64,000 nucleotides of DNA from Mobula hypostoma (Eukaryota). The notes beneath the pieces were generated by a model, which saw only the letters and a list, made by a program, of their open reading frames with translations, did not search any database and was not told the origin of the DNA. The DNA is taken from NCBI RefSeq assembly GCF_963921235.1, contig NC_086097.1, forward strand, positions 62,436,001 through 62,500,000, given 5' to 3'. The position numbers were made by a program, and so were the translations under genes. This document shows positions 11,491 to 58,589 of the stretch, piece after piece. Positions within the stretch are counted from its first letter, which is position 1. Each line of letters starts with the position of its first letter.

Positions 11491-12510
11491 ATAGTCATCG
11501 TCATAGTCATAGTCATATTTTATTGATCCCGGGGGGAAATTGGTTTTCGTTATGGTTGCGCTATAAATAATTGAATAGTAATAAAACCATAAATAGTTAA
11601 ATAGTAATATGTAAATTATGCCAGTAAATTATGAAATAAGTCCAGGACCAGCCTATTGGCTCAGGGTGTCTGACCCTCCAAGGGAGGAGTTGTAAAGTTT
11701 GATGGCCCCAGGCAGGAATGACTTCCTATGACGCTTTGTTTTGCATCTCAGTGGAATGAGTCTCTGGCTGAATGTACTCCTGTGCCCAACCAGTACATTA
11801 TGTAGTGAATGGGAGGCGTTGTCCAAGATGGCACGCAACTTGGACAGCATCCTCTTTTCAAGCACAACTGTCAGAGAGTCCAGTTCCATCCCCACAACAT
11901 CACTGGCCTTACAAATGAGTTTGTTGATTCTGTTGGTGTCTGCCACCCTCAGCCTGCTGCCCCAGCACATGACAGCAAACATGATCGCACTGGCCATCAC
12001 AGACTCATAGAACATCCTCAGCATCGTCCGGCAGATGTTAAAGGACCTCAGTCTCCTCAGGAAATAGAGACAGCTCTGACCCTTCTTGTAAACAGCCTCA
12101 GGGTTCTTTGACCAGTCCAGTTTATTGTCAATTCGTATCCCCAGGTATTTGTAATCCTCCACCATGTCCACACTGACACCCTGGATGAAAACAGGGGTCA
12201 CTGGTACCTTAGCTCTCCTCAGGTCTACCACCAGCTCCTTAGTCTTTTTCACATTAAGCTGCAGATAATTCTGCTCACACTATGTGATAAAGTTTCCTAC
12301 CGTAGCCCTGTACTCAGCCTCATCTCCCTTGCTGATGCATCCAACTATGGCAGAGTCATCAGAAAACTTCTGAAGATGACAAGACTCTGTGCAGTAGTTG
12401 AAGTCCGAGGTGTAAATGGTGAAGAGAAAGGGAGACAAGACAGTCCCCTGTGGACCCCAGTGCTGCTGATCACTCTGTCGGACACACAGTGTTGCAAGCA
12501 CACGTACTGT
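11491..12510 (-). mobile_element. Young 5'-truncated Rex1/Babar LINE
   Basis: PQGTVLSPFLFTIYTSD, KFSDD, KTKELVVD, YKYLG...LYFLRRLRSF. (TATGAC)n tail at 11491-11517. Confidence 0.9.
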
Positions 12511-12659: not shown

Positions 12660-14710
12660 GATGACGAAACTTATCAACAGCTGCCTGAGGAGTGATTTAG
12701 ATCCATTCCAATTTGTCTACCATCACAGCAGGTGCCATTTTATTGGTTCTTCACTCAACCCTGGAACAACTGGACAATGAAGATGCTTACATCCGGATGC
12801 TATTCATTGACTACAGCTCAGCACCCAATACTATCATCTCCTCAAAACTGATCAATAAGTTTCAAGACCTTGGCCTCAATGCCACCTTGTGCAACTGGAT
12901 CCTCAATTTCCTCACTTGCAGACCCCAGTCTGTTCAGATTGATAACAACACCTTCTCTATAATTGTGATTGTGTAGCCAAGTTTCCATCAAACTCAATAT
13001 ATAAGTTTGCTGATGACACAACAATTGTAGGCCGTATCTCGCGTAATGATGAGTTTGAGTACAGAGAGGAAATTAAGAACCTGGTGGCATAGTGTGAAGA
13101 CAATAACCTATCCCTCAACGTCAGCAAGACGAAGGAATTGTTTGTTGACTTCAGAAGGAGTAGCGGACCGCACGACCCAATTTACATCGGTGGTGCGCAA
13201 GTGGAACAGGTCCAAAGCTTTAAGTTCCTCGGTGTCAATATCACAAATGACCTGACTAGGGCCAACCAAGCAGAGTCCACTGCCAAGAAGGCCTACCAGC
13301 GCCTTTACTTCCTGAGAAAGCTAAAGAAATTTGGCCTGTCCCCTAAAACTCTCACTAATTTTTATAGATGCACCATAGAAAGCATTCTTCTAGGGTGCAT
13401 CACAACCTGGTATGGAAGTTATCCTGTCCAAGACCGAAAGAAGCTGCAGAAGATCGTGAATACGGTGCAGCACATCACACAAAGCAATCTTCCATCCGTG
13501 GACTCACTTTACACCACACGCTGTCGGAGCAGTGCTGCCAGGATAATCAAGGACACGACCCACCCAGCCAACACACTTTTTGTCCCTCTTCCCTCTGGGA
13601 GAAGGTTCAGGAGCTTGAAGACTCGTACGGCCAGATTTGGGAACAGCTTCTTTCCAACTGTGATAAGACTGCTGAACAGATCCTGACCCGGATCTGGGCC
13701 GTACCATCCAAATATCCGGACCTGCCTCTCGGCTTTTTTGCACTACCCTACTTCCCATTTTTCTATTTTCTATTTATGAATTATAATTTAAATTTTTAAT
13801 ATTTACTATTTTAAACTATTTTAATATTTAATATTTGTAATCCAGGGAGTGTGAAGCGCAGAATCGAATATCGCTGTGATGATTGTACGTTCTAGTACCA
13901 ATTGTTTGGCGACAATAAAGTGTAAAGTATAATCACCTACAGCACAGGTACATCATAAGGCTATGTGCTTATCCTCCTGATCTATTCACTTTAACTTATG
14001 ACTGTTAGGCTAAGTACGGCTCCAATGCCATATTTAAGTTTACAGATGGCATCATTGTAGTTGCCCATATCAAAAGTTGTGACAAATCAGCATATAGGAG
14101 GGAGATTGAAATTCTGGCCGAACGAATGCCACAACAATCCCTGACTCAACGTTGGTAAGGCCAGGGTGTTGAATTTTGACTACGGGAGGAGGAAACCAGA
14201 GGTCTATAAGCCAGTCCTCATCAGGCAATTCGAGGTGGAGAGGGACAGCAACTTTAAGTTCCTTGCTGTTGTCATTTCAGAGGATTTGTCCTGGGTCCTG
14301 CACGTAAGTGCCATTACAATAAAGGCACGGCAATGCATCTTCTTTCTTAGAAGTTTGTGAAAATTCAGCATGTCATCTAAAACTTTGACAAACTATAGAT
14401 GTGTAATGAAGATTATACTGACTGGTTGCATCACAGTCTAGTATGGAACACTAGTACCCTTGAATCTAAAAACCTCCAAAAAGTAGTAAATACAGCCTAT
14501 TCCATCACATGTGAAGCCCTTCCCACTGTCACAGGAAAGCAGCATCCATCTCATCAAGGATCTCCATCATCCAGGTCATACTCTTTTTTTACTGCTGTCA
14601 TCAGGAAGGAGATACAGGAGTCTTAGGTCCCACACCACCAACTTCAGAAACAGTTATTACCCTTCAACCATCTGACTCTTGAACCAGAATGGATAACTTC
14701 ACTCACTGAA
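12660..14710 (+). mobile_element. Older Rex/Babar LINE fragment interrupted by a younger copy at 12964-13927
   Basis: [14 protein letters not shown] before the insert. RT sequence resumes at 13934 and includes FKFLAVVISEDLSW. Confidence 0.85.
12964..13927 (+). mobile_element. Younger 5'-truncated Rex/Babar LINE
   Basis: KFADDT and ORF 13138-13686 (FKFLGVNITNDL...RLYFLRKLKKF). aataaag tail. TSD tataat at 12958-12963 and 13928-13933. Confidence 0.9.
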
Positions 14711-15405: not shown

Positions 15406-15822
15406 AGATCATAGAACCACAAAACATAGAGCGGAAAGTCCTCAGTCTCAGAACAGAAGGACGCCTGTTTAGGACAGAAATGAGGAGGCTGAGAGGTCTA
15501 ATGGACTAATTCTGCTTCTATGTCTAATGGCATGAAATAGTTTGATTAGCTGTGTAGAAACTATCAGCAACATACCATTCTATTAATTTCTTGCACTATA
15601 TATTCAATGACACTGATTCTACATATGACCTTAGAGGGAAGCAGAAAGGAGTTTTAATTAAATCATAATTTGAGGTTTATATTGTTGGTCAGTATGGTGG
15701 TACAGTAGTGACCAAGTACAGACTAAATGCTGCTGCCTCAGACCTTCAAGGACTGGGATTCAGTCCTGATTTTGGGTGTTGACTCTATGCAGTTTCTCCA
15801 TTTATTCACAAACAGATTAAAG

Positions 15823-15904
15823 CAGGGGATTCCAACCTTTTTTTCATGCCATGGAACAATATCATTAGGCAAATTGTCTGTGGACCCCAGATTGGGAACT
15901 CCTG
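15823..15904. mobile_element. 82-bp hAT (Charlie-type) MITE
   Basis: TIRs caggggattccaacct / agattgggaactcctg. 8-bp TSD gattaaag / gattagag. Confidence 0.85.
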
Positions 15905-16859
15905 GATTAGAGTGTTTTCTCTTGAAGTAAGAAACAGAGGAAACAACTCACAATTATGCAATGGTTTCTTCTACTCTAGAGAGTGAAGCAGTAAAATATC
16001 TTCCAGTTCACAAATCCAGGCATAGATGCTATTACTAACAGCTCAAGACAAGTCACTTGAGAATATTGATTGCTCACTCTCTGTTGGATCCATGTGGGAG
16101 TGATTACACTCAAATCTCAGTTGTCACAGGACCAACCATGAGCTGTGTCACACAGTGATGAACCTTTAACTAACTGGTGTGACAAACACCACCAGAGAAC
16201 GTTTAAAAGCATCCAGACGCATTAGTGTTGAGTACTGATGTTACGTTCACAGTCCCAACTTAAATTTATATATGGCATCCAATGCAGTGAAAGTGTTTTT
16301 AAAAAAATGAATTCAGAGACAAACAGATGGATGGAATTAGAAAAGGATTTCTAGAAAATGAGGCATAACCATCATTAGTGGGTCAAAGCTGGGACAGGTC
16401 TGAGCAAACGGGGACAGTCACTGATCAAAGGGCTAGAGTGGAAGATAGGAGTTTGAGGCCTATATTACATGGAATTAGGGGTTAGGAATGGGTAAAGGAC
16501 TCATTAACTATTAGAAGATGGAGGGTTGGAAAAAATGGGTGTTTCTCTGGTTGACACTCAGTGATGAGCAGAGTGCTGCAGGAGTTGGTGCTGGGCCTGC
16601 AATAAATATTAATGATTTGGAAGAGGGATGTTTCCTAATGATACTAAACGTGTACAGAAATTGCAGCATGCTGTTGTGTAGAGGATTTCTTATTCTTGTG
16701 GGCTAATGTCTTTCCTGACAAGGGGGATGACGGTGCCTGGTCAGTGAGACCTGTGGCTGTGAAAACAATCTCCTGTTCTGTGGTGGTTGTACGAGTTGAC
16801 TCAGAGATGGCTGGAGGTGCTTCTGAGAGCTCTGGACCCCTTTCTTCTTTTCTTTGTCT

Positions 16860-17484
16860 GGATAAATTTCAATCCTTTTCTTTCTCATGGTCCTTCTCTT
16901 TTTCACACCATTCTCTTTCTCATTCACATTCTTTCACTCCATCTCTTCCCTCCTTTTTCCTGTTAGTCTATGCATCTTAATCTTGGGAAGGTCCATTTAG
17001 TTCACTTTATTCTGTTATTAATCCTTCTATTGCTCCCTTTATGATCTGATCTCTCCTCTTGGTTTCCTCATCCACAACATCTGATGAATCCTCTATTTTC
17101 TCCATTGACTCCTCTTTTTTGGCTATCCATTCATCCAGCTGAACTTTGGTCTTTGCATATATGTTCACAAGCAGTTTTTTGTCTCCTACTCAAAGTTTAG
17201 GCAATAATGTTAATGCACGCAGAGTAGTTTCTGGTTCTTTATATTCACAAAAGGTGACGCTTGCAACTTTCCTGAAGCTCCTTGAACTTTCGCCCAGCTT
17301 ATATCCAAGCCACATTTCGCAAGTAACTACCTGATTAACAGATCAGAAGATTTCTCTGATGTGTTGCTTATGAAAACTGTTGTAGTCAGACCACTGTATT
17401 CAACATTTTCACACTTCCTCTGAGGAGCACGTTCCTTCCTTGGTCCAATATGCTTTCGAACCAGAGCACAGAGGTTGGCACCAA
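16860..17484 (-). pseudogene. RBM25: Processed (intronless) RBM25 pseudogene fragment: RRM domain plus part of the ER-rich region
   Basis: Across frameshifts and stops it reads LVPT..KHIGPRK..GLTTTVFISNTSEKSSDLLIR*LLAKCGLDISWAKVQGASGKLQA..FCEYKEPETTLRALTLL..VGDKKLLVNIYAKTKVQLDEW..DEETKRRDQIIKGAIEGLI..SELNGPSQ. This matches the RBM25 sequence as I recall it (GPTTTVFVGNISEKASDMLIRQLLAKCG..GASGKLQAFGFCEYKEPESTLRAL..DEETKRRDQMIKGAIE). Confidence 0.9.
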
Positions 17485-18967
17485 TGCTTTTTTGTCCTCT
17501 GTTGGGCAATGGTTCATGCTGTTCAGCACAAAGTCAATTGTGGTATTATTCAGTACATTTCTTAATTCACTTTCAGTTGGCTTCAATGTAGGGGATGTGG
17601 CATACAAATTGTGGATGGATCCCCAATCAAGTTGTTATTGTCTCACCTACTCACACTCCCATAATGCTGAGCCCCCTGCTTTTACCACATACAAGCTCAA
17701 TGTGACTTGTTGTTTGTTGTATTTCACTGTTATGGATGCCATTCCCACAGGCGTTATTATTTCTCCAGTACAAATTCTTAGTTAGATATCTGTAGGCTTC
17801 AGTTTAGTACCTTTGAAATGTCTTTCAAACTCATTTTGTTGAATAACTGTAACAGGCGATACAGTGTTCAATTCCATTTTAATTAATTTGCCGTTCACTT
17901 CTCGTGAAAGCCATATTGCTTGCGTATTGTTAATTTTCATACTATAAATCTCAGTCCTGTGTTATTCTCATTATGATCAGATTTTTCATTACAGCATGCA
18001 GATTAGTGCTCTTTTTGAAACTGTAACTTGATATTTTATCTTTTTTTCTTCTCTGTGCAGTTCATTTATTTTTGTCCGCCTGACACGCACTTTGTATGTG
18101 TCCTATTTTGCTGCATTTTCTCCAAGTTTTGTCTTTAAATCTGCTTTTGGATGGTGCATGTGAGCCCCTGCCACAATGGTAACACAATTTGTGCTACCTT
18201 TAACTGGCCAAGCCGGTTTCTGTTTAAACTTTGCAATTTTGTTCACACTCACTTTCTTTCCTGACAGCAACTCAATTGTGTCTCTGTCTGCTGTTTTCAT
18301 TGATACAGCACTTTCGACTGCTCTTTTAAATGTACATTGTGCTCAGTTACGAGTCATTTTCGAATGCTTTCTTTTAAGATTCCACAGACTAAGCAATCTC
18401 TTCGTGTTTCATTAAGCCCATTACTGAACTGACAATGCTCTCTTCAATTCATCTATGTATGCTGAAATTGATTCCCCCTCATTTTGATTCTGCCTAAGAA
18501 ACCTACAGTATTCAACAATGGCTTCAGTTCTAAATGTTCCTGCATCACTTTCATTATCAGGAAAGCTCATTACTGGAGGCTAAGTTGGAGCAGGCAAATT
18601 TTGAAGCAAACTGTATGCTTTTAAACCCAACGACACTCTCTTCTCAATGGCTATTTCATTTGCTTCAAAATACTGTTTTTTTCAGTATATTGTTTATAGC
18701 TCAGTATACATGAGTCAATTACCCACTGAGTAATCAAACACTTCAGTCTTTCAGAAGTTGCCAGCCATTTCTGCTACTTTAAATAATTATTTTCACCTGA
18801 TACTCAATCTTTATAGACCCGTGACTTCTTCCATTTTCTGACTTTTTTATTAAAACTCAATCGTGCCTTCCCTTCCTCATCCTTCGCTGCACTTGCTTTT
18901 AGTTCGAAAATCTCACTGCACTTTAAAAGATCATCTCTGGTTCATTTTAAAAATACCTTATCACCAG

Positions 18968-19194
18968 TGTTATGTTTTGTAACTTCAAAACATTAAATTA
19001 ATTCAAATGAAGGCATAGGAGTCCAAAAGTATATCTAACTGTGGATTTGCTTTCAACGTGGTAACATGATGATGTATGCAAGTAACATTTTTACATATAA
19101 CCCGTAATTACTTATTTTAACAAGCAAGAATACTTAATCAACGAATATATGAATGCGATTACTCAAATATTATTGAAATATCAAACACATAACA
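18968..19194 (-). repeat. 5' LTR of the RBM25-carrying Gypsy element
   Basis: TG...CA ends with an 8-bp terminal inverted repeat, adjacent to the PBS at ~18955-18966. Confidence 0.75.
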
Positions 19195-19400
19195 GTAGTG
19201 AATCTGCAGACTTCTTTTGCCAAGGAAGCAGTCAATACTAACTCATTAATTATATTTAAGATGCAGTTAGATAGTGTTTTCCATCACAGGGAATTACGGG
19301 TTCTGGAGAAATGGCAGGTGGGTAGAGTTGAGTCCACCCAACTGCCAGAATCTTATTGAGTAGCAGAGCAGGTCTATTTCTGCTCCTGTTTCCTATGTTT
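19195..19400 (+). mobile_element. CR1 3' end fragment
   Basis: gtagtgaatctg...atatttaagatgcagttagatag...ctcctgtttcctatg. Confidence 0.7.
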
Positions 19401-19449
19401 TTATATTTTTAATGATGAATGCAGTACTCCAGCTGAGGTCTGACCAATG

Positions 19450-19645
19450 CACACATGAAATGCTGGAAGAACTCAGCAGGTTAGGTAGTATCAATGGAAG
19501 AGTGAAAAACAGACAAGGTTTTTGGCTAAGACACTTCATCAGGACTGGGAAGAGCCGGAATAAGAAGGTGGGAGGAGTGGAAAGAACAGGACCAGATGAA
19601 TGGGAAGGTGGATTCATGGGTGAGGGACAATGAAGTGAGAAGCTG
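19450..19645 (-). mobile_element. Penelope-like 3' terminal fragment
   Basis: Reverse-strand family tail and a degenerate hammerhead (cagtcctgatgaagtgtcttagccaaaa). Confidence 0.7.
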
Positions 19646-19779: not shown

Positions 19780-20420
19780 TGTTCAATAGAACTCCTTAGG
19801 ACCCAACCAATTCATGATGCTTTTACCAACCTCATTAATAGTCTTATACATATTAGACATAGTCTGATAAAGCATCATCTCATAGTTATCAAGATTAAAC
19901 TCCATCTGCCATTTCTCAGGCCCTGCACCACCACATCAAAATCACCATGTACCTTAATTCTACCCTCCACACTATCAGCAACTCCATAATCTTCATGATA
20001 CCTACAAACTTACTGATCTTGTCTCGCATATCCACATCCAAAAACAACCATGTACAGTATATTAGAAACAGCATACATCCTTGTGGGACACCACTAGCCA
20101 AAGGTATCCAATCACAAACCTAAACCTCTATCATTACCCTCTGTCTCCTATTGCTTAGGCAGCTTTGGGTCCAATTTTCCAAGTTGGCTTGGATTACATA
20201 TGCCCCAAGCTTCTGAAGCCACCTCCTATGCGGGTCAATATTAAAAGCCTTACTAAAGTCCACGTAAATCACATCTACTACCCTGCCCTCATCAATATAC
20301 TTTGTTAGCTCTTCAATCAGATTGGTCAGATAAGATCTGCCCTTAACAACAACACACTGGTAGATCCCTGCTTTTCCAAGTGACAATTAATTCTCTCCCT
20401 GATGTGTTTTTTCCCCCCAG
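19780..20420 (-). mobile_element. Old CR1 RT fragment
   Basis: KGRSYLTNLIE..VDVIYVDFSKAF and SGVPQG. Confidence 0.85.
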
Positions 20421-21564: not shown

Positions 21565-21709
21565 TTAAAGGGGTTAACATATGAGGCACATTTGGCAACT
21601 TTAGGTCTGTAAACACAAAATAATCTGCAGATGCTGTAAAAGATCAAAGCAACACTTCCAGTACGCTGGATGAACTCAACAGGTTGGGCAGCATCAGTCA
21701 GAAACCATG

Positions 21710-21745
21710 AGTCGACGTTTCAGGCCGGAACCCTTCGTCAGGACT
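21710..21745 (-). ncRNA. Minimal type I hammerhead ribozyme with intact core (Penelope-associated)
   Basis: Minus RNA AGUC-CUGACGA-AGGGUUCCGGCCU-GAAA-CG-UC-GACU: stem I AGUC/GACU, CUGANGA and GAAA boxes, GUC triplet, palindromic ACGU in place of stem III. Confidence 0.75.
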
Positions 21746-22987
21746 GAAGAATGAAAGATGGGGAAGGATTTGAAGAATGCTTGTAGCGTCAGTTGATAGA
21801 TCAGTAATTTGAAAGACAAAGGGGTGGGGGAGAGGAAGCATTGACGTCATAACCCTGAAAACAATGGGTGGTAGAAGAAGGAGGCGGAACGATGAGGTAG
21901 CTGGGGGAGGGGGCAGAGTGAAATTAGGATAGAAGAAGGTGGGTGGGAGGGAATTACCGGAAGTTGGAGAATTCTATTTTCATACCAAGGGGCTGGAGAC
22001 TACCTAGACAGTATATGAGGTGTTGCTCCTCCAACCTGAGTTTAGCCTCATCATGGCAGTAGAGGAGGCCATGTATGGACAAATCTGAATGGGAATGTGA
22101 AGCAGAGTTGAAGTGGGTGTCCACCGGGAGATCCTGTCTGTTGTGGTGGACAGAGCGGAGGTGCTTGACGAAGCGGTCCCCCAATCTGCGTCGGGTTTCA
22201 CTGATGTAGAGGAGGCTGCACCGGGAGCACCGGATACAATAGATGACCCCAACAGACTCACAAGTGAAGTATTGTCTCACCTGGAAGGACTGTTTGGGGC
22301 CCTGAATGGTTGCAAGAGATGAGGTGTAGGGACAGGTGTGGCACTTACGCTTACAGGGATAAGTGCCGGGTGGGAGATCAGTGGGGATGGACATGTGGAT
22401 AAGGGAGTCACGGAGGGACCGATCTCTGCGGAAAGCGGAGAGGGGTGGAGAACGAAAGATGTGCTTAGTGGTGGGGTGAATCTGTTGGGGTCATCTATTG
22501 CATCCGGTGCTCCCGGTGCGGCCTCCTCTACATCGGTGAAACCCGATGCAGATTGGGAGACCGCTTTGTCGAGCACCTCCGCCCCTTCCGCCAAAACAGA
22601 CAGGATCTCCCAGTAGCCACCCACTTCAACTCTGCTTCCCATTCCCATTCAGATATGTCCATACATGGTCTCCTTTACTGCCATGATGAGGCTAAACTCA
22701 GGTTGGAGGAGCAACACCTCATATACTGTCCAGGTAGTCTCCAGCCCCTTGGTATGAACATAGAATTCTCCAACTTCCGGTAATTCTCTCCCCCCCCCCC
22801 CCATCCCTATTTCACTCTGCCCCCTCCTCCAGCTCCCTCATGGTTCCACCTCCTTCTTCTACCACCCATTGTCTTCAGCGCTATGATGTCAATGCTTCCC
22901 CTCCCCCACCGCTTTGTCTTTCAAATTACTGGTCTATCAACTGACGCTATAAGCATTCTTCAAATCCTTCCCCATCTTTCATTCTTC

Positions 22988-23023
22988 AGTCCTGACGAAG
23001 GGTTCCGGCCCGAAACGTGGACT
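22988..23023 (+). ncRNA. Minimal hammerhead ribozyme copy with cleavage triplet mutated to GUG
   Basis: AGUC-CUGACGA-AGGGUUCCGGCCC-GAAA-CG-UG-GACU. Confidence 0.65.
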
Positions 23024-24484
23024 CATCGTTTCTGACTGATGTTGCCCGACCTGCTCAGTTCATCCAACTTTAGGTCTGTACTCACTGGAATTTAGAAGAA
23101 TGCAGGGGGATCTCATTGAAACCTACCAAATGTTGAAAGGACGAGATAGGGTGGATATGGAGAGGGTATTTCCTGTGGTGGTGGTATCCAGAACAAGAGA
23201 GCACAGCTTCAAAATTGAGGGGCAACCTTTTAGAACAGAGGTAAGGAGAAATTTTTTTAGCCAGAGAGTGGCGAATCTGTGGAATGCTTTGCCACAGACT
23301 GCAGGCGAGGCCAAATCTGTGGGTATATTTAAGACGGAAGTTGATAGTTTCCTGATCGGTCAGAGCATCAAAGGTTATGGCGAGAAGGCAGGTGGCATTG
23401 AGTGGGATCCAGGATCAGCCATGATGGAATGTCGGAACAGGATTGATGGGCGGAATGGCCTAGTTCTCATCCTGTGTCTTATGGTCTTGTGTAGAATGGA
23501 CAGATACATGATACTGTCCTCTCCCAAGTTCAGTCCATCTCATTGTAATGTTATGTCTCCTTCATAAACCACAAAGCAAGCTTTGATTCATTTTGGAGAG
23601 CATCATTTAAATACTCAGTTATTCTCATTTATTGCTTTTGAGTGTACAGAACCTGGAACATCAGTAGAATTCCCAACAGTACAAGCAAAATGACAGCTAG
23701 TGCTTCTGCCACCTGACCTCAGATGTTATCAACGTGAAACTTGCACATTTTTCCTGCACCTGTGTAAGTTTGTTAATTAATGAGACATTAATTACAGATG
23801 CAACAATAAAGTAGTATCAAGAAAAATTTAAAAAATATTTATCTGCATTTACCTTTTCAATGAAGATCAGCAATTCCAATCAATACTTATATCAACCATC
23901 TTAGCATAAAACTGAGGGCTGAATGACTCAGAACTTTTGCAGTGCACTGCTGGACTTGGTACTGAGTCCAGTAGTAGAGCAGTACATTACTTGAACAAAT
24001 GTTTAACTTCCATCTTGTCTCTGGCCTTCATGTTTCAATGTACTCTCCTGGAAGTCAGAAATAAGCCACCTGCCAGCAGGTCATTGCCTGTGGATCAGAC
24101 AACAGAAGGTAACCAACAGATTTATGGCCCTTTCCATTACCCTTTTCAATTAGTTTTATATATCCACTGCATTTTTGTAATTTGTATACAAGGACCCCTA
24201 AATCTCTTAGGAATCTGCGTCACTTACATTCTTTAATTTTAGTAATGGATAATTCTATCCCAATGGATTGGCTCACACTTATCTTTGTGAAATCTATCAG
24301 CTTTTGTTTCATAGAAATGAAGTTCTCTAACATATTATTCATAAAAATATGAGTAAATGGGTCTGCAGCATGGATCTGTGTGGGGCTTACTTGACAATTC
24401 CTTCCAAAGAGTGCATTTACAATTTCCCAACTTTCTGTTGCCTACCATTCATCCAGTTTCTGAACTAAACAAGTAACACGCCTT

Positions 24485-32480: not shown

Positions 32481-32599
32481 AACCACCTTGACACATACCA
32501 GAATTATTCCCACAAAATTACTGAAAGCCAACTTAGTTTTCAAATATTATATCCTTCCCACTTTTGGCTACTTGCACTTCTATCTGGAGCCTTATTAGA

Positions 32600-33977
32600 A
32601 ATGCAAAAACTAGGGCTTTAATGTTTTGGCAACAGGGGACTCCAGATAACCTAGCTCCTGGGGCTCCCTTGTGGCTATGTATGGAGTCCAACTCTGTTGT
32701 CAATTCCTCCTTGTCAGCCATGCTGTTCTCCAAGTTAGAGAAGCCTGGGACTTCAAAAAGTTTGTGTTTTGTTTTGAAAAATTCCGTCAGAATTCTAAAT
32801 CAGATTTGGAGCATTCTGAATTTACCAAAGACCTCTGTAAAAACACTAATCTGTTTCAATCACTTCTTTCTACCTGCATGGTCAGATAAAACCTTCCATG
32901 CTTGGAGGGAGAAGGGTCTAGTTTCTATTGAAGACCTGTACATAGAGGGATGGTTTGCAACATTTAGTCTGCTGAAAGAGAAATTTGAGCTGCCTGATTT
33001 GCACTTTTTTCATTATTTACAAATTAGTCACTACATTCAATCTAAGATTTGTAATTTTGAAATCCTTCCAGGGAAACATATGTTTTTTGATATTTTAAAG
33101 AACCCTCCTGACTCCAGGCATCTCGTTTCTAAGTTTGTATGTTTGTTTGATAATTGCACTGTAGCGTCTACTGTGAAGATTAGAGATGCCTGGAGAGGAG
33201 TTGGGCATTGAATTATCTGAAGCTGCCGGGATAAGTGTTTGTCTATGATACAGGCTTGCTCTGTTAACAGCAGGCACCAACTGATCCAGTTTAAAGTCGT
33301 CCACCGTCTCCATTACTCTAAACTTAGATTGCACAGGATTTACCCTTCTGTCCTGCCAATGTGTGATAGATGCCAATGGACGGAAGCCATGTTGTCACAC
33401 ACTTTTTGGTTTTACCCATTACTGACTGGATTTTGGTCCAAAATATTCGACTGGTACTCAAAGGCCTACAAAAGATCCTTCCCCTTGGAAGCTGGTCTCA
33501 CTATATTTGGCTGCTCGCAATCTACTATTTGTTTCCCTGCAGCCATACAACAGTCTCTGATGCTGGGGAAGATTGTTGCCAAAAGACTTATTTTGAGGAA
33601 ATGGAAATCACCTTCTCCCCCTTCCTTTCAGAGATGGATGGCTGATATGATCTCAGTCATACAGATGGAGAAACTTAGGTTCTTGAGAACCAATTCAATA
33701 AAAAATTTTTAGCTATCTGGGATCCATTTCTTGCCTACAAGGATGAGGCCGGGAGCAGATGAGCAATTTCCCCCCAGTTGATTTCTCACAGCCCTCATTT
33801 GAGATTTACTGTTTAGTATTTTTGAGCACTTTGTATAATAGGCATCCCTCTAACATTATGTCTTTTTTTTGCTTATTTCTTTTTTATATATGTCTGAACT
33901 GGTATGTTTTTGTTGATTTCATTGTTTTTTTTTTGAAATTTTTGAAAATAAAGTATTAAAAAAAGAAATGAAAAAAC
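32600..33977 (+). mobile_element. 5'-truncated L1/Tx1-clade LINE
   Basis: ORF2 C-terminus QFKVVHRLHYS..CDRC..LSHTFW..FWSKIF..AKRLILRKWK, then aataaa and an A-rich tail. Confidence 0.9.
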
Positions 33978-45309: not shown

Positions 45310-48300
45310 ATGGAAGGTTTACAACCTCCACCAAAACTTCAGCTGACTGGCAATGTAGCTGAGAATCGGAGGATATTCAAGCAACAGTTTGAACTGTACT
45401 TATCAGCAATTGATTATGAAGAGAAATCAGAAAAAAAACAAAGCTGCGCTTTTGCTCCATGTAATTGGGAATGACACAGTAGAGGTATATCATAATTTTG
45501 TCTTTGAAGATGGAGATAATTTCAATTTAAAGTCGATAATGGACAGATTTGAAGTATTTTGTATACCTAAGTGTAATTTAACGTATGAGCGAAATAAATT
45601 CTTCACGTGCGCAGAGAGCCACTGAAACAATTGATCAATATGTTACTGAGTTAAGAAAGCATGGTAGAACATGTGAGTTTGGATTGCTCATGGACTCTCT
45701 CATTAAAGATAGACTTGTTTGTGACATTCGAGACATTGCTTTGAGAGAAAGGCTGTTGAGAGAGCAAGATTTAAATTTTGAAAAAGCTTTGGTGATTTGC
45801 AAAGCTTCTGAGACCATGACGTTGCGGGCTGAAGAGCTTTTTGTCGAAAACTGCAATGTAAACGCTGTAAAAAAGTGCGAATACATCAAGAAATATAATA
45901 ATACGTCAACGAAACTGATAGAGAGCACAAAGGCATTGGAAGGAAAAAAGCCATGTGATCGCTGTGTGTGGGAACATCGTCCAAATCAGTGTCCTGCATA
46001 TGGCCAAAAAGGCAATGGCTGCGGTAAGATTAATCATTTTTAACATTGTTGTAAAAGTAGAAAGAAAGAAGGAAAATAAAATGAAACAAGTAAATGCTGT
46101 GCTTGAAGATGAACGCGAGGAACTGTATATAGATGTGCTTTGTGAAAATAACAAAGTCAGAACTAGTCCATTGTTTTCCAAAGTAAGACTATTCCACTGC
46201 AAGTGAATCAAGACAATATTCTGTTTAAACTTGATAATGGAGTGCAAGTAAATGTTCTTGCAGAATCTGAGTTTAATGCTTTAAATCCAAGCCCGAAGTT
46301 ACATCAGACAAATATAAAAGTGACTGGGTATTCAGGTGCAGACATTCCAGTTAAAGGAACATGCGTGGCAAAGGTATCACACAAAAATATCGTGTATACG
46401 CTTTCATTTGTGGTCGTGCCAAAAAATATAGTCAGTTCTGTGTTTATCTGCCTGTGAAATACTTAATTTGGTGAACAGAGTTTTAGTCCTGGATAGCGAC
46501 ACAGAGTCAGAATACAGTGACTTGATGAAAGAGTATGAAGACTTGTTTAACGGGCTTGGTTGTCTTCCAGGAGAGCACTCGATTAAAATTGACAATACAG
46601 TGCAACCCGTAATACATCCATGCAGTGAAGTACCTTTTGCATTATGTCATCAACTGAAAACGTCATCAACTGAAGTTAGACAGAAGGGAAAGGCTGGGAG
46701 TCATAAATAAAATTGATGAACCAACTGAATGAGTCAGTTCCCTTGTCATTGTTGATAAGAAAAATCAAAAACTGAGGATTTGTTTAGATCCAAGAGACTT
46801 GAATCGAGCCATTAATAGAGGGCATTTCAAATTGCCTACTCGTGAAGAAATTATGTCACAGTTTGCTAATACAAAGTATTTTAGTAAATTAGATGCATCC
46901 TCTGGATTCTGGCAACTCAAATTAGATGAACCAAGTTCAAAATTGTGTACCTTTAATACTCCTTTTGCCAGATACTGTTTTCTTAGGCTCCCTTTTGGAA
47001 TTGCATCAGCTCCTGAAGTGTACCATAAAACCATTCACATGTTATATGAGCACATTGAGGGTGTAGATACATCCATGGATGAGATTATTATTTGGGGATC
47101 GACTAAACAAGAGCATGATGCCAGGCTCAGACAAGTCTTTGAGGCAACACGCAAGGCAAACCTGAAACTGAATAAAGACAAATGTCAACTAGGAGTGACT
47201 GAACTTACATTTGTGGGTGATATCATCAGCAATGAGGGTATGCGTCCTGATCCATTGAAGGTTTCTGCTATTGAGAACATGCCAAGACCGCAATGTAAAA
47301 AGGATGTTCAGAGGTTTATGGGAATGGCCAACTACATGGGAAAGTTTATACCCGATCTCTCGGAACAGCTCGCTCCATTGAGGCAGCTAACAGAAAAGAG
47401 AAATGAATGGAGCTGGAACCATGGACAGGAGAAGGCATGGCAAAATCTCAAGAAAGTGCTCACTAAAGAACCTGTGTTGAAATTCTGTGATGCTCAGAAA
47501 CCCATCAAAATCTCATGTAATGCATCTCAAGCAGGCTTAGGGGCAGTATTACTGCAAAAACATGATCAGGATTGGCTACCTGTGGCATATGCATCTCATT
47601 CATTATCTGATCCAGAAACAGGGTATGCCCAAATTGAAAGAGAATTGCTCAGCATTATGTTTGCTTGTGAGAGATTTCATCAGTTTGTGTCAGGGCAATC
47701 TATTGATGTTGAAACTGACCATAAGCCTTTGATTGTATTGTTTATCAAACCTTTAAGTGATTGTCCTTTGCGAATTCAGCGAATGATGATCAAATTGCAG
47801 AGATATGCGTCGAATGTGTCATACACACTTGGAAAATTCATGTACACGGCTGACACACTTTCCAGAGCTGTGGATCCAACAACAAAAGACAGTCAGAGGG
47901 ACATTATTGATGTTCAGGTATCTATTGATATGGTCATTGAAACTGTACCTGTTGCTCCCAAAAAGTTGGAACTGCTGTGTCTTGAGACAGAGAAGGACAA
48001 AATTCTCAATCAGGTAGTACAAGTGGTGTTGGATGGATGGCCAGATAATAGGCATGACTGTACCACAATAGTACAAGATTATTGGAACCATAGATTAGAA
48101 CTGCCTGTTGTGGATGGGATATTGTACAAAGGTAGTAGAATTGTTATACCTAAAAGTCTCCGTAAAGAAATTCTTGATAAAAATCATGAAGGCCACCTAG
48201 GCATTGAAAAATGTAAGAGAAGGGTACGGGAAGTGATATTTTGGCCCAGGATGAATCAAGAGATTGCAGGATTGGTGCCTTCTTGTATCCTGAAGTGTGT

Positions 48301-49002
48301 TGTCTGGGTAGATCGAGTGCAGAAAATGTAATTACATGCATGAAATCGTTTTGTTCAAGACATGGTGTACTTGATGAAGTTTTCACAGACAATGGTCCAC
48401 AATTCAGTAGTGAATGCATGAACCATTTTGTTCCTGAATAGGGCTTTGTTCATACAACATCTAGTCCATTTTTCCCTCAGTCTAATGGATTAGTTGAGAG
48501 ATCGGTGGGAATTGTCAAGAAACTGATGCACAAAGCAAAAGATAGTGGACGTGATTTTTATAAAGCCTTGTTGGCCTTCCGCAGCATGCCACTTGAATGT
48601 GGATTTTCACCTGCTCAGCTCTTGATGGGACGTCGTTTGAGGTCTAATCTGCCAATGGATGAGAGCCTTCTGAGAACAGAGGAAGGTGAACAAGTGAAAA
48701 GATGGAAAGATGAACACAAAGCAAAGCAGAAAATATACTTTGATAGATGTTCTCGTCCATTACCTGAATTACATCAGGGAGGTGAAGTGAGGATACAAGA
48801 CAAAATGATCACATGGACACAGAAAGCTACAGCACTTGAAGATGTACAACCCAGATCATACACAGTCCAAACAGAGGAGGGAGCGGTGGTAAGGAGAAAT
48901 CGCAAAAACCTCAAGAAAGAGCCAACTTCAGAGATTCAGTTAACTGATGCAGACGAGACAAAACATGTAAATAATAACAAGGAAACACAAGATCTGTGTT
49001 AG
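45310..49002 (+). pseudogene. Gypsy gag-pol, broken by frameshifts and stops (longest ORF 46799-48331)
   Basis: Domain order PR-RT-RH-IN across track ORFs 45585, 46203, 46468, 46799, 48241 and 48505. Confidence 0.92.
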
Positions 49003-53299: not shown

Positions 53300-56200
53300 T
53301 TTCTTCGGTAGTTTGAACGGGGCACCACTGCGCAAGCGCGTGAAAGTCGGCCCGTAAGACAGCGGGAGAGTTTAAAAAGCAAGCAGATTAACGGAGCAGG
53401 CGACGTAGTAGTGGGCAAAGGAGTAGTGGGAAACAGAGTAGGAAGGCTTTGGCTCGAGAGGCTTCGGCGAGCAGAGGCTGAGGACGAGCTTGCTCCCAGT
53501 GAGGTAAGGCCGGGTAAGTTCCTTTAATTACTCTAATTAACTTAGGAGTAGGTAATGGAGGCAGCAGTTAGGGCAGTCCAGTGCTCCATTTGCAGTATGT
53601 GGGAAGTCAAGGCGAGCACAATTGTCCCTGATGACTACACCTGTAAAAGGTGCATCCAGCTGCAGCTCCTGACAAACTGAGTTAGGGAACTGGAGCTGGA
53701 GCTGGATGAATTTTGGATCATTCGTGAGGCAGAGGCAGAAATAAACAGGAGTTACAGGGTGATAGTCAACCCCAAAAGTCAGGAGGCAGGTAGCTGGGTG
53801 ACTGTCAGGAGAGGGAAGGGGAATAGACAGAATGAGCAGAGCATCCCTGTGGCCATTCCCATCAATAATAAGTATTTCATTTTGGATGCTGTTGATGGGG
53901 ACGACCTACCAGGGACAACATGCGGTGGTTGTATCTCTGGCACCGAGACTGGAAGGGAAGGAGGGAGAAGAGGAGAGCAGTAGTGATAGGGGATTCAATA
54001 GTTAGGGGGACAGATAAGAGGTTTTGTGGAAGAGATCGAGAATCCCAGATGGTCTGTTGCCTCCCTGGTGCCAGGGTTTGCGATATCTCGGATTGAGTTC
54101 TCAGTATTCTCCAGAGGGAGGGTGAGCAGCCGGATGTCGTTGTCCATGTAGGGACCAATGACATGGATAGGAAGAAGGACGAGGTCCTGCAAAGAGAATT
54201 TAGGGAGTTAGGTGCAAAGTTGAAGGACAGGACCTCCAGGGTTGCAATCTCAGGATTGCTACCAGTGCCGCATGCTGGTGAGGCTAGAAATAGGAAGATA
54301 ATGCAGCTAAATACGTGACTAAGGAGTTGGTGCAGGAGGGAGGGCGGGCTTCATGATTCTGGACAGTTGGATCTTGTTCCAAGGAAGATGGAACCTGTTC
54401 CGACAGGATGGGTTGCACCTGAACTGGAGGAAGACTTACATCCCTGCGGGAAGGTTTGCCAGTGCTGCTCTGGGGGGTTTAAACTAGATTTGCAGGGGGA
54501 GGGTAACCAGAGTGTTAGAGCTGATAGTGAGGTGGAGGAGGATAAAGGTCATGTGAGAACTGCAAGTATAGTGCATGGAGTAAAGCCAGATCTAACATAT
54601 AAAGAGGCTTTGAGGAAAGAGAAGCAGAATAATGGGTGTAAAGGTAGTAAGGTAGAAGGGCTAAAGTGCGTGTACCTCAATGCAAGAAGCATCAGGAACA
54701 AAGGTGATGAACTGAGAGCTTGGATACATACATGGAATTATGACGTAGTGGCCATTACAGAGACTTGGCTGGCACCAGGGCAGGAATGGATTCTCAATAT
54801 TCCTGGATTTCAGTGCTTTAAAAGGGATAGAGAGGGCGGAAAAAGGGGAAGAGGGGTGGCATTACTGGTCAGGGATACTATTACAGCTACAGAAAGTGTG
54901 GGTAATGTAGCAGGATCCTCCTTTGTGTCAGTATGGGTGGAAGTCAGGAACAGGAAGGGAGCAGTTACTCTACTGGGGGTATTCTATAGGCCCCCGGTAG
55001 CAGCAGAGATACAGAGGAGCAGATTGGGAGGCAGATTTTGGAAAGGTGCAAAAATAACAGGGTTGTTATCATGGGTGATTTTAACTTCCCTAATATTGAT
55101 TGGCACCTGATTAGTTCCAAGGGTTTAGACGGGGCAGAGTTTGTTAAGTGTGTCCAGGACAGATTCCTGTTACAGTATGTTGACAGGCGGACTGGGGGAA
55201 TGCCATACTAGATCTAATATAAGGTAACAAACCAGGTCAGGTCACAGATCCCTCAGTGGGTGAGCATCTGGGGAACAGTGACCACCGCTCCCTGGCCTTT
55301 AGCATTATCATGGAAAAGGATAGAATCAGAGAGGACAGGAAAATTTCTAATTAGGGAAGGGCAAATTATGAGGCTATAAGGCTAGAATTTGCGGGTGTGA
55401 ATTGGGATGATGTTTTTGTAGGGAAATGTACTATGGACATGTGGCTGATGTTTAGGGATAAATTTGCCCAGGTGAGGAAGATAAAGAATTGTAGGGTGAA
55501 GGAACCATGGGTTACGAGTGAGGTGGAAAATCTAGTCAGGTGGAAGAAAGCAGCATACATAAGGTTTAGGAAGCAAGGATCAGACGGGTCTATTGAGGAA
55601 TATAGGGTAGCAAGAAAGGAGCTTAAGAAGGGGCTGAGGAGAGCAAGAAGGGGGCATGAGAAGGCCTTGGTGAGTAGGGTAAAGGAAAACCCCAAAGCAT
55701 TCTTCAATTATGTGAAGAACAAAAGGATGACAGGAGTGACGATTGGACCGATTAGAGATAAAGATGGGAAGATGTGCCTGGAGGCTGTGGAAGTGAGGGA
55801 GGTCCTCAATGAATACTTCTCTTTGGTATTCACCGATGAGAGGGAACTTGATGATGGTGAGGACAATATGAGTGAGGTTGATGTTCTGGAGCATGTTGAT
55901 ATTAAGGGAGAGGAGGTGTTGGAGTTGCTAAAATACATTAGGATGGATAAGTCTCCGGGACCTGACGGAATATTCCCCAGTCTGCTCCATGATACGAGCG
56001 AAGAGATTGCTAAGCCTCTGGCTAGGATCTTTATGTCCTCATTTTCCACGGGAATGGTAGCGGAGGATTGGAGGGAGGCAAATGTTGTCCCTTTGTTCAA
56101 ATAAGGTAGCAGGGATAGTTTGGGTAATTATAGACCAGTGAGCCTTACATCTGTGGTGGGAAAGCTGTTGGAAAAGATTCTTAGGGATAGGATCTATGGG

Positions 56201-57487
56201 CATTTAGAGAATCATGGTCTGATCAGGGACAATCAGCATGGCTTTGTGAAGGGCAGATCGTGTCTAACAAGGCTGATAGAGTTCTTTGAAGAGGTGACCA
56301 GGCATATAGATGAGGGTAGTGTAGTGGATGTGATCTACATGGATTTTAGTAAGGCATTTGACAAGGATCCACATGGTAAGCTTATTCAGAAAGTCAGAAG
56401 GCATGGGATCCAGGGTAGTTTGGCCAGGTGGATTCAGAATTGGCTTGCCTGCAGAAAGCAGAGGGTCGTGGTGGAGGGAGTACATTCAGATTGGAGGGTT
56501 GTGACTAGTGGTGTCCCACAAGGATCAGTTTTGGGACCTCTACTTTTCCTGATTTTTATTAACAACCTGGACGTGGGGGTAGAAGGGTGGGTTGGCAAGT
56601 TTGCAGATGATACAAAGGTTGGTGGTGTTGTAGACAGTGTAGAGGATTGTCAAAGATTGCAGAGTGACATTGATAAGGTGCAGAAGTGGGCTAAGTGGCA
56701 GATGGAGTTCAACCCGGAGAAGTGTGAGGTGGTACACATTGGAAGGACAAACTCCAAGGCAGAGTACAAAGTAAATGGCAGGATACTTGATAGTGTGGAG
56801 GAGCAGAGGGATCTGGGGGTACATGTCCACAGATCCCTGAAAGTTGCCTCACACGTAGATAGGGTTGTTAAGAAAGCTTATGGGGTGTTAGCTTTCATCA
56901 GTCGAGGAATAGAGTTTAAGAGTCGCGGAGTAATGATGCAGCTCTATAAAACTCTGGTTAAGCCAAACTTGGAGTACTGTGTCCAGTTCTGGTCGGCTCA
57001 CTATAGGAAGGATGTGGAAGCATTGGAAAGGGTACAGAGGAGATTTACCAGGATGCTGCCTGGTTTAGAGAGTATGCATTATGATCAGAGATTAGGGGAG
57101 CTAGGGCTTTACTCTTTGGAGAGAAGGAGGATGAGAGGAGACATGATAGAGGTATACAAGATATTAAGAGGAATAGATAGAGTGGACAGCCAGCACCTCT
57201 TCCCCAGGGCACCACTGCTCAATACAAGAGGACATGGCTTTAAGGTAATGGGTGGGAAGTTCAAGGGGGATATTAGAGGAAGGTTTTTTACTCAGAGAGT
57301 GGCTGGTGCGTGGAATGCTCTGCCTGAGTCAGTGGTGGAAGCAGATAGACTAGTGAAATTTAAGAGACCACTAGACAGGTATATGGAGAAAGTTAAGGTG
57401 GGAGGGTTATATGGGAGGCAGGGTTTAAGGGTTGGCACAACATTGTGGGCCGAAGGGCCTGTACTGTGCTGTACTGTTCTATGTTCT
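53300..57487 (+). mobile_element. Near full-length CR1 LINE (CpG-rich 5'UTR, ORF1 zinc finger plus SGNH esterase, ORF2 APE-RT), inserted in an older CR1 3' fragment (53130-53283 plus 57488-57735)
   Basis: ORF1 from ATG 53555 (CSIC..CKRC, VIGDSIVRG, VHVGTND). ORF2 YLNARSI..AITETWL, NYRPVSLTS, DFSKAFD, SGVPQGSVLGP, KFADDT. ttctatgttct tail. Confidence 0.97.
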
Positions 57488-58589
57488 AAAACTTGGGGGG
57501 CACAGATTTCGGATGAGTGGGAAAAGATTAAAAAGGGGCCAGAGTGGGGGAGCATATGGAATTATCTGCCAGAAGACGTCGTTGAGGCAGGCACAATAGT
57601 ATCCTACGAGAAACCCTTAGATTGAGACATGGAAGGATGGAGTTCAGAGGGATATGGACTGAACGCAGGAAACCGGAACAGGTGGGCACCATATGTGAAA
57701 TGTACTCACTGGGCTACATCCCTGCTTGGGCTCTATAATCCACAAATGCAGACAGTTACATCATTACAGTTTATTTGCAAATTAAAGTCAACCCTAATGA
57801 ATGGGTGATTCATTCTGGAATGATAGAATGGGAAATTTGTATCATTTTAGTACAATATTAGTATGAATCACGATGAATTCTCACCTTTACTATTGCTAAG
57901 TGAACAATACAAGGCTATCTAGCATCCAAAATTGGAAGAATCACTAAATAGTACCAGAATAAGGATACATTTCATTAAATTAAGTGCATAGGAAGAGAGG
58001 TAGGGTTAGTAAATGGTGTACAGAGAAGTTCCCAATGGGTGGAGAACCAAACTTTTATTGTGGAATTTGGAGAAACATATTCACTTCCTGAATCTAAAGG
58101 AAGCCAGACTGTCTTTCTTAAGAAGTGAACATTTACCTGCTTGCTTTCCTGTCCCAGAAGAAGACTCCAACTACACTGATACGTCACACGGGCACTATTA
58201 CTTCCCACACTGGTCTCAAGTATGAAGTGTTGCATGGGCCCTGCTTCATTAGAGCTGTTTTGCACATTTCATCTAAGCCCAAGGTAATTTGGACTCATTT
58301 CTTTTTCGCCTGAATTTTTAGATTGCGATAGGTCAGAACTGGGATATAACAGAATCGACAGCCCTTCTTTCCTATCTTATTTGTCCTGCATCTGTAGGAC
58401 TCGAAGCAGGAATGGTATTTTGGATTAGACAGGATGGAGCCCAAGTGCTTATCACCATCCTGCAGCAATGATACAGCATTAAAGAAAAGTTTTTTGAAGA
58501 TACCACCAGGAATAGTGAATATTACTTTTGAAGTATGATTAGCTAGGCTGGGCGAGGCTGGCTTTCATTTCAACAATGGGAACTGAAGA

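Follow-up and report, generated by a model that had tools for sequence, protein, structure and literature searches.

Does a fragment of a host splicing-factor gene inside a Gypsy LTR retrotransposon record an isolated accident, or does it mark the birth of an element family that spread with its cargo? The question is raised by an element on the minus strand of the window (the whole 64,000-nucleotide stretch of DNA analysed here), which a sequence-only reading had described as LTR, PBS, gag, protease, a piece of RBM25 and a Gypsy integrase tail. That order is indeed present, running from 19194 to 16677 with the RBM25 sequence being spliced host exons, and its parts are as follows.

18968..19194, minus strand: 5' LTR of 227 nt with TG...CA ends read off the sequence; it occurs as 5' and 3' LTR at other loci.
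18956..18966, minus strand: decayed PBS, immediately after the LTR here and in 5 complete elements; we take it to be of tRNA-Ser type.
17962..18820, minus strand: gag-like region (start approximate), interrupted by stops and frameshifts, with zinc-knuckle remnants.
17546..17953, minus strand: protease and pol linker in a single frame with internal stops; this runs on into RT in 8 of 30 loci.
17539..17545, minus strand: 5' switch point, 7 nt common to the host mRNA and the RT-bearing relatives, where the pol frame is the RBM25 frame.
17488..17545, minus strand: last 10 nt of RBM25 exon 3 plus a 48-nt exon ("3b"; host C1:99832633-99832586, AG/GT ends).
16970..17487, minus strand: RBM25 exons 4, 5, 6 and most of 7, spliced, covering the RRM and the following helix (exon starts 17487, 17317, 17259 and 17100).
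16876..16969, minus strand: Arg/Glu-rich remnants of RBM25 exon 10, left after shared 119- and 35-nt deletions that removed the preceding exon.
16841..16875, minus strand: last part of exon 10 and beginning of exon 11, behind a ~180-nt deletion that other copies share; contains the 3' switch point, out of frame.
16677..16840, minus strand: integrase C-terminal tail, matching the tail of loci L081 and L077.

Pfam searches with short window frames returned nothing below E 0.05 (PNMA for gag only at E 0.096), and those with three X-read window frames returned no family at E 0.01 and no RT, RNase H or rve match; the parts were therefore identified through homology searches and the host gene. Specifically, positions 19194-17539 are colinear with the RT-bearing locus L081 at 69% identity. 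No tRNA lies within the window. The copy is truncated at 16677, where the match to its relatives stops—these extend ~150 nt further, up to a 3' LTR—and it has no 3' untranslated part, polypurine tract or 3' LTR. Its gag is broken and its cargo frames hold seven stops. The copy is old and dead, as it had been judged to be, and belongs to a non-autonomous LTR family of the Ty3/Gypsy superfamily. Other repeats share the window. A better-preserved LTR element of another family lies at 45582-49002 (plus strand; no blastn match to the parent locus L081), with frames that by motif we take to be gag-like, RT/RNase H-like (532 aa) and integrase-like. A long inverted repeat (21667-23066; arms of 324 nt at 92% and 282 nt at 90%) overlaps a 178-aa frame (21954-22490, minus strand) that presumably resembles a GIY-YIG/Penelope endonuclease, and LINE ORF2 remnants of several types, presumably CR1-like, L2/Rex-like and L1/Tx1-like, occur at 54319-57625 (plus), 19780-20390 (minus), 11653-12279 (minus), 13093-13686 (plus) and 32537-33712 (plus).

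The cargo occupies 17545-16841 on the minus strand (~705 nt). The sequence-only reading had placed it at 17484-16860; it in fact ends in exon 11, and the ~60 bp previously left unassigned before it are the end of RBM25 exon 3 and the 48-nt exon. Its identity as RBM25 holds: the window cargo peptide (X at stops) gave 28 matches among 120 candidates; every one of the 28 has an RRM or PWI domain, and RBM25 accounts for the best matches and for most of the named ones. A PWI search located the host RBM25 gene at G000:C1:99.81-99.84 Mb (minus strand), ~37 Mb from the window, and its exons were delimited by homology and AG/GT ends within 120 kb around the gene (we assume that their numbering follows the vertebrate RBM25 gene). 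Window and host agree at 491 of 576 aligned nt in exons 3 to 7, and since blastn of the window against the spliced host mRNA gives E 1e-175, the match is not due to chance. The cargo unites exons spread across about 29 kb of the host gene, with no intron sequence, crossing five exon-exon joints over exons 3-7 as well as the exon 10/11 joint. It comprises the last 10 nt of exon 3, the 48-nt exon, exons 4-6, most of exon 7, remnants of exon 10 and the beginning of exon 11. The earlier description of an intronless piece thus stands as regards splicing, though not as one continuous piece of mRNA: three internal pieces are lost (~119 and 35 nt, and ~180 nt), and many other copies have the same deletions.

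The 48-nt exon (G000:C1:99832586-99832633, minus strand) lies between host exons 3 and 4 and holds two in-frame ATGs. Because its peptide is present in RBM25 of the shark Heptranchias perlo and absent from the 172 other RBM25-like proteins compared, it is likely a cartilaginous-fish exon. The same shark provides the closest named protein to a host RBM25 exon (89% identical, most other full-length matches being at most 79%), which makes a cartilaginous fish the very likely host. Among 70 hybrid copies, the exon was seen in 54 and not seen in 3, the region being uncovered in 13. A tblastn search of the host interval G000:C1:99813200-99819254 revealed no exon for the 18-residue segment that follows exon 7 in mammalian RBM25, a segment that gar and eel RBM25 also lack. 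Two LTRs of the hybrid's family lie upstream of host RBM25 exon 2, at G000:C1:99876650-99876890 (36 kb) and 99906429-99906635 (66 kb).

How the two sequences were joined can be read from relatives that retain the pol genes. Two loci, L077 and L081, carry RVT_1, RNase H and rve in Gypsy order (PR-RT-RNase H-IN, a Ty3/Gypsy feature) and match the window LTR, protease and tail; each matches both window flanks with RT-RNase H-IN lying between, so that the flanks come from one Gypsy family, as had been supposed. At the 5' switch, 7 consecutive positions in 30 RT-bearing loci equal the host mRNA (the TGCCACA that closes exon 3) in 77-97%, and the shared stretch extends to 10 of 12 positions if two mismatches are allowed. 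The true 3' switch falls at ~16849-16841, where 9 positions in 30 integrase-bearing loci equal host exon 11 (GAGAAGAAA) in 77-93%. The rough probability of sharing such bases by chance is 1e-3 at the 5' and 1e-4 at the 3' switch. Hybrids change template exactly at these two shared stretches, and the switches are fixed at mRNA positions ~162 (5') and ~1233 (3') in the long, main and short forms alike. The pol and RBM25 frames agree across the 5' switch, which the natural copies L004, L050 and L108 cross stop-free; at the 3' switch the frames are off by one base.

We consider it very likely that the window element is a dead copy of a Gypsy hybrid born once, through a double template switch onto a co-packaged RBM25 mRNA, and that the hybrid likely owes its multiplication to enzymes supplied by its RT-bearing parent. 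RBM25 mRNA would have entered a virus-like particle together with element RNA; reverse transcriptase, having begun on the element RNA, would have left the integrase tail for RBM25 exon 11 where the two share 9 nt, and then copied ~1,070 nt of RBM25 as far as exon 3, where the 7-nt match would have let it cross into the protease linker. RBM25 exons would thus have replaced RT, RNase H and most of the integrase. Because LTRs, PBS, polypurine tract and gag region were retained, the hybrid would have stayed packageable, and the anatomy suggests that the enzymes of the parent family then multiplied it in trans.

A different route to the same structure would start from a processed pseudogene of RBM25 made by a LINE: it would have landed in a Gypsy copy that had already suffered a deletion, or recombined with such a copy, and the product would have spread. 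LINE remnants are plentiful in the genome, and a deleted, cargo-free element does exist (L074, G000:C18:120.48 Mb), its protease linker nearly abutting its integrase tail. The cargo, however, is an internal mRNA piece with no 3' end, the 3' exons of host RBM25 are single-copy in the genome, and both cargo edges lie exactly on sequence common to the parent. The junction listings likewise bear out the earlier remark that no poly(A) and no target duplication are found at the cargo edges. The pseudogene reading is largely refuted by these observations, and we regard it as very improbable. Transduction by the LTR element, as the sequence-only reading had proposed, is supported, and none of the four outcomes set beforehand against it was found, these being a best match other than RBM25, a cargo confined to one exon or containing intron sequence, a poly(A) tail or target duplication at its edges, and flanks from different Gypsy families.

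The hybrid is not confined to the window. A search with the cargo DNA gave 2,854 first-look candidates (79-83% identity among the 40 scored), host exon 6, which lies within the cargo, gave 2,361, and exon 9, present in the long form only, gave 357; the controls from outside the cargo, exon 2 and one late exon, gave 1 each. These first-look numbers are candidates and not counted copies, 40 being scored per search. In all 30 fetched cargo loci (window included) the cargo adjoins element sequence, and most have a second LTR ~150 nt past the end point of the window copy. Target duplications were read in other copies, the window copy having no 3' LTR: both ends could be located for 9 elements. One of these carries an exact 5-bp duplication and another three agree at 4 of 5 positions, all of them different and in different flanks, and 5 of 9 have no clear duplication (decay or uncertain ends). 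The family therefore consists of many dispersed copies with two LTRs, a PBS, a polypurine tract and their own target duplications, and the guess of an amplified non-autonomous family is confirmed by the 30 of 30 loci with cargo beside the element and by the exon 6 count against a single candidate for each exon outside the cargo. Judging from these searches, the hybrid probably spread to a few thousand genomic sites.

Could such numbers have arisen through DNA-level duplication of a single hybrid locus instead of retrotransposition? Two pairs are nearly identical, L004/L026 (0.9%) and L005/L015 (1.2%), and are likely DNA or assembly duplicates. They are, however, the sole two such pairs among 63 copies; the others differ by 11.5-24% in a star tree, and flanks and target duplications differ between loci, which leaves duplication at the DNA level scarcely credible as the source of the family. 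Locus L005 (G000:C96:22.42 Mb) also has an internal tandem duplication of part of the protease-cargo region.

The protease search yielded 8,510 candidates (150 scored), and among the top 30 protease loci 17 carry the cargo (15 by a scripted test, 2 by a junction or partial match), 8 run into RT and 5 are cut short. Parent RT gave 3,355 and integrase 2,978 first-look candidates (40 scored each), similar to the number for the cargo. Hybrid and parent have the same LTR and equal tip lengths: the trees are star-shaped, their tips measuring 0.10-0.11 in hybrids as in parents, and the two families are of the same age. The window-type hybrid is thus a non-autonomous element with a contemporaneous autonomous partner bearing the same LTRs. 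Exchange between the two may have continued. A multi-base variant just past the 3' switch is common to 3 of 30 parent loci (L165, L179 and L185) and 5 hybrids of two forms (L009, L018, L019, L048 and L055), which hints that hybrids recombined later, perhaps repeatedly, with their helper. In the protease tree, a single origin of the hybrids' protease region had a p-AU of 0.135, and no branch was starred.

These families are old. Across 61 copies (9 poorly covered and 2 duplicates removed) divergence is 18.2% between copies and 13.5% from the host gene, and LTR pairs, datable in 5 of 28 fetched loci, differ by K2P distances of 0.21-0.26 (four hybrids, one parent). Comparison with ~19-21 thousand contigs from each of three other organisms (4 of 24 runs) places the window copy itself in time. 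Contigs of organism B span its 5' LTR edge (19160-19481), its 3' switch (16743-16928) and its truncated end (15800-16771) at ~2% difference and, because they bridge those edges, the insertion and truncation predate the split from organism B. A 530-nt contig of organism E spans the 5' switch gaplessly at 10.6% difference; no paralog in the present genome comes as close, and the contig is likely an ortholog of the window copy. Absolute dating was tried with the epaulette-shark mutation rate of 7e-10 per generation given in an excerpt of PMC10587355: 0.11 changes per site divided by this rate is ~1.6e8 generations, too many with multi-year generations, and for this reason no age in years is given.

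The cargo itself exists in several structural forms. The longest runs from mRNA position 162 to ~1233 with one 30-nt gap (L114, L124 and L107). Derived forms are marked by shared deletions of 252 nt (4 loci), ~138 nt and ~73-75 nt, the window's form by those of 119, 35 and ~180 nt, and in the short form exon 7 runs almost directly into the integrase tail. The 70 hybrid loci comprise 30 of the long form, 28 of the window's form and 12 short or truncated, a split that is no estimate of frequency because the searches targeted those forms. Six base changes are enriched in the derived forms, consistent with descent from the long form; the cargo tree does not separate the structural forms. The RRM exons are retained in every form seen and the Arg/Glu part is trimmed, and in the window's form the reading frame is lost beyond exon 7 through the 119-nt deletion. 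We infer that the purine-rich half of the cargo was shortened in subsequent rounds, that additional template switches at short repeats generated the deletions, and that each trimmed form spread anew.

Is there any sign that the cargo mattered to the element? Among private cargo changes in the 61 copies, the ratio of amino-acid-changing to silent rates is 1.10 for transitions and 1.02 for transversions (538/588 sites), neutral as expected after insertion. Changes marking the derived forms number 5 amino-acid-changing to 1 silent—a small sample, but not a constrained one. Of the near-fixed differences between host and copies, 19 are silent and 1 alters an amino acid (Fisher p 2e-10 in comparison with rare variants), an excess for which the simplest reason is selection that has acted on the host gene after the capture; allotting these differences to the host or the element branch takes outgroup DNA, and early constraint on the cargo along the element's stem is also compatible with them. 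At the single near-fixed amino-acid site the window copy bears the shark residue, so no fixed amino-acid change is assigned to the element's stem. None of the 70 sampled copies, drawn from probably thousands, is stop-free over at least 180 of 201 residues. Where a functional retrogene has an intact frame and purifying selection, these copies have stops and a ratio of ~1, and no constraint on the cargo protein was found in those sampled. The cargo is most likely a passenger.

The same capture could nevertheless have produced a cargo that helped, either through a founder encoding an in-frame Gag-protease-RRM protein or through purine-rich RBM25 RNA that aided export, packaging or escape from silencing, and this would explain the parent-like number of hybrids. 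Several of the patterns above fit such a history, and others speak against it. In its favour, the pol and RBM25 frames agree at the 5' join, which some natural copies cross stop-free; yet one join in three would be in frame by chance, and the 3' join is out of frame. All forms seen keep the RRM exons and lose parts of the Arg/Glu region, but the deletions lie in stretches crowded with short repeats, and that of 119 nt, which marks the commonest form, is not divisible by 3. The window copy has the shark residue at the sole near-fixed amino-acid difference; subfamily-marking changes, on the other side, are 5 amino-acid-changing to 1 silent, and long stop-free copies are lacking among the 70 sampled. 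The 17 to 8 ratio of cargo to RT among the top protease loci is biased by a protease query taken from a hybrid, and RNAs of reduced length may just be copied more efficiently. Taken with these counterpoints, help from the cargo appears quite unlikely, and we retain the reading of a passenger captured by double template switching.

Non-autonomous elements that lost their enzyme genes, gained foreign internal sequence and are copied by an autonomous relative are represented by mouse ETn/MusD and by retroviral oncogene transduction. The RBM25 hybrid resembles these in its lost enzyme genes, foreign insert and autonomous relative; they are endogenous retroviruses, whereas the hybrid is a Gypsy element with an identifiable spliced donor and a cargo function that is putative at most. 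Among proteins, its protease and linker are 41-47% identical to fish Gypsy Pol of the K02A2.6-like type (P0040, Labeo rohita; P0033), whose order PR-RT-RNase H-IN the parent shares. Unlike the hybrid, those Pol proteins run on into RT. A database search with the fused protease-RBM25 protein gave 3 matches among 354 candidates, all Gypsy, and none of the best 150 of 348 representative matches joins protease and RBM25, both of which are weak evidence. No paper tying RBM25 to an LTR element in fish, nor a closer vertebrate parallel, was found among the matches listed from the open-access literature, and the family may already carry a name in repeat databases.

The closest described class is that of LTR-mediated retrocopies in animals, for which the sections of Tan et al. 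(2016; PMC5131818) drawn on here report zebrafish cases (5 of 7) and note that chimeras can serve as non-autonomous elements. Like those retrocopies, the hybrid has a partial spliced mRNA, on the same strand, set between separated parts of an LTR element, a short stretch of common sequence at either switch, cargo edges free of poly(A) and duplication, and secondary retroposition as a non-autonomous element. With its spliced mRNA, one-family discontinuous flanks, microsimilarity and clean cargo edges, the RBM25 hybrid belongs to this class. What is unusual is its scale, its deletion ladder and its preserved splice form: the retrocopies described in those sections are young and low-copy, whereas the hybrid is old, probably numbers thousands and includes re-amplified deletion forms, and RBM25 is absent from the main text of that paper. 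Maize Bs1, as summarized there (PMC5131818), is likewise an LTR element with host exon sequence and common switch points in all copies, but it has 1-5 copies, three donor genes and a reported function, whereas the hybrid has one donor gene, far more copies and no sign of constraint.

These data and the capture model have several implications. The hybrid copies will confound RBM25 annotation, read mapping and retrocopy counts, and because one retrocopy pipeline discards repeat-masked candidates according to the portion of its description consulted (PMC13320880), they are likely missed by such pipelines. The copies also form a fossil record, preserving both switch points, the later deletion ladder and an old RBM25 splice form with the 48-nt exon, and shared hybrid insertions could be presence/absence markers among related species. 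A bolder proposal is that the RBM25 piece drove the family's success, as an RRM fused in frame to Gag-protease or as a purine-rich RNA signal, bringing it to the parent's number, and that its copies may now feed small RNAs against the essential RBM25 message in cartilaginous fishes; we think this unlikely. The cases given in that part of Tan et al. (2016; PMC5131818) exist as a single copy or as a few; the hybrid suggests that one capture slip by an LTR element can seed thousands of copies of conserved splicing-factor exons in a vertebrate genome.
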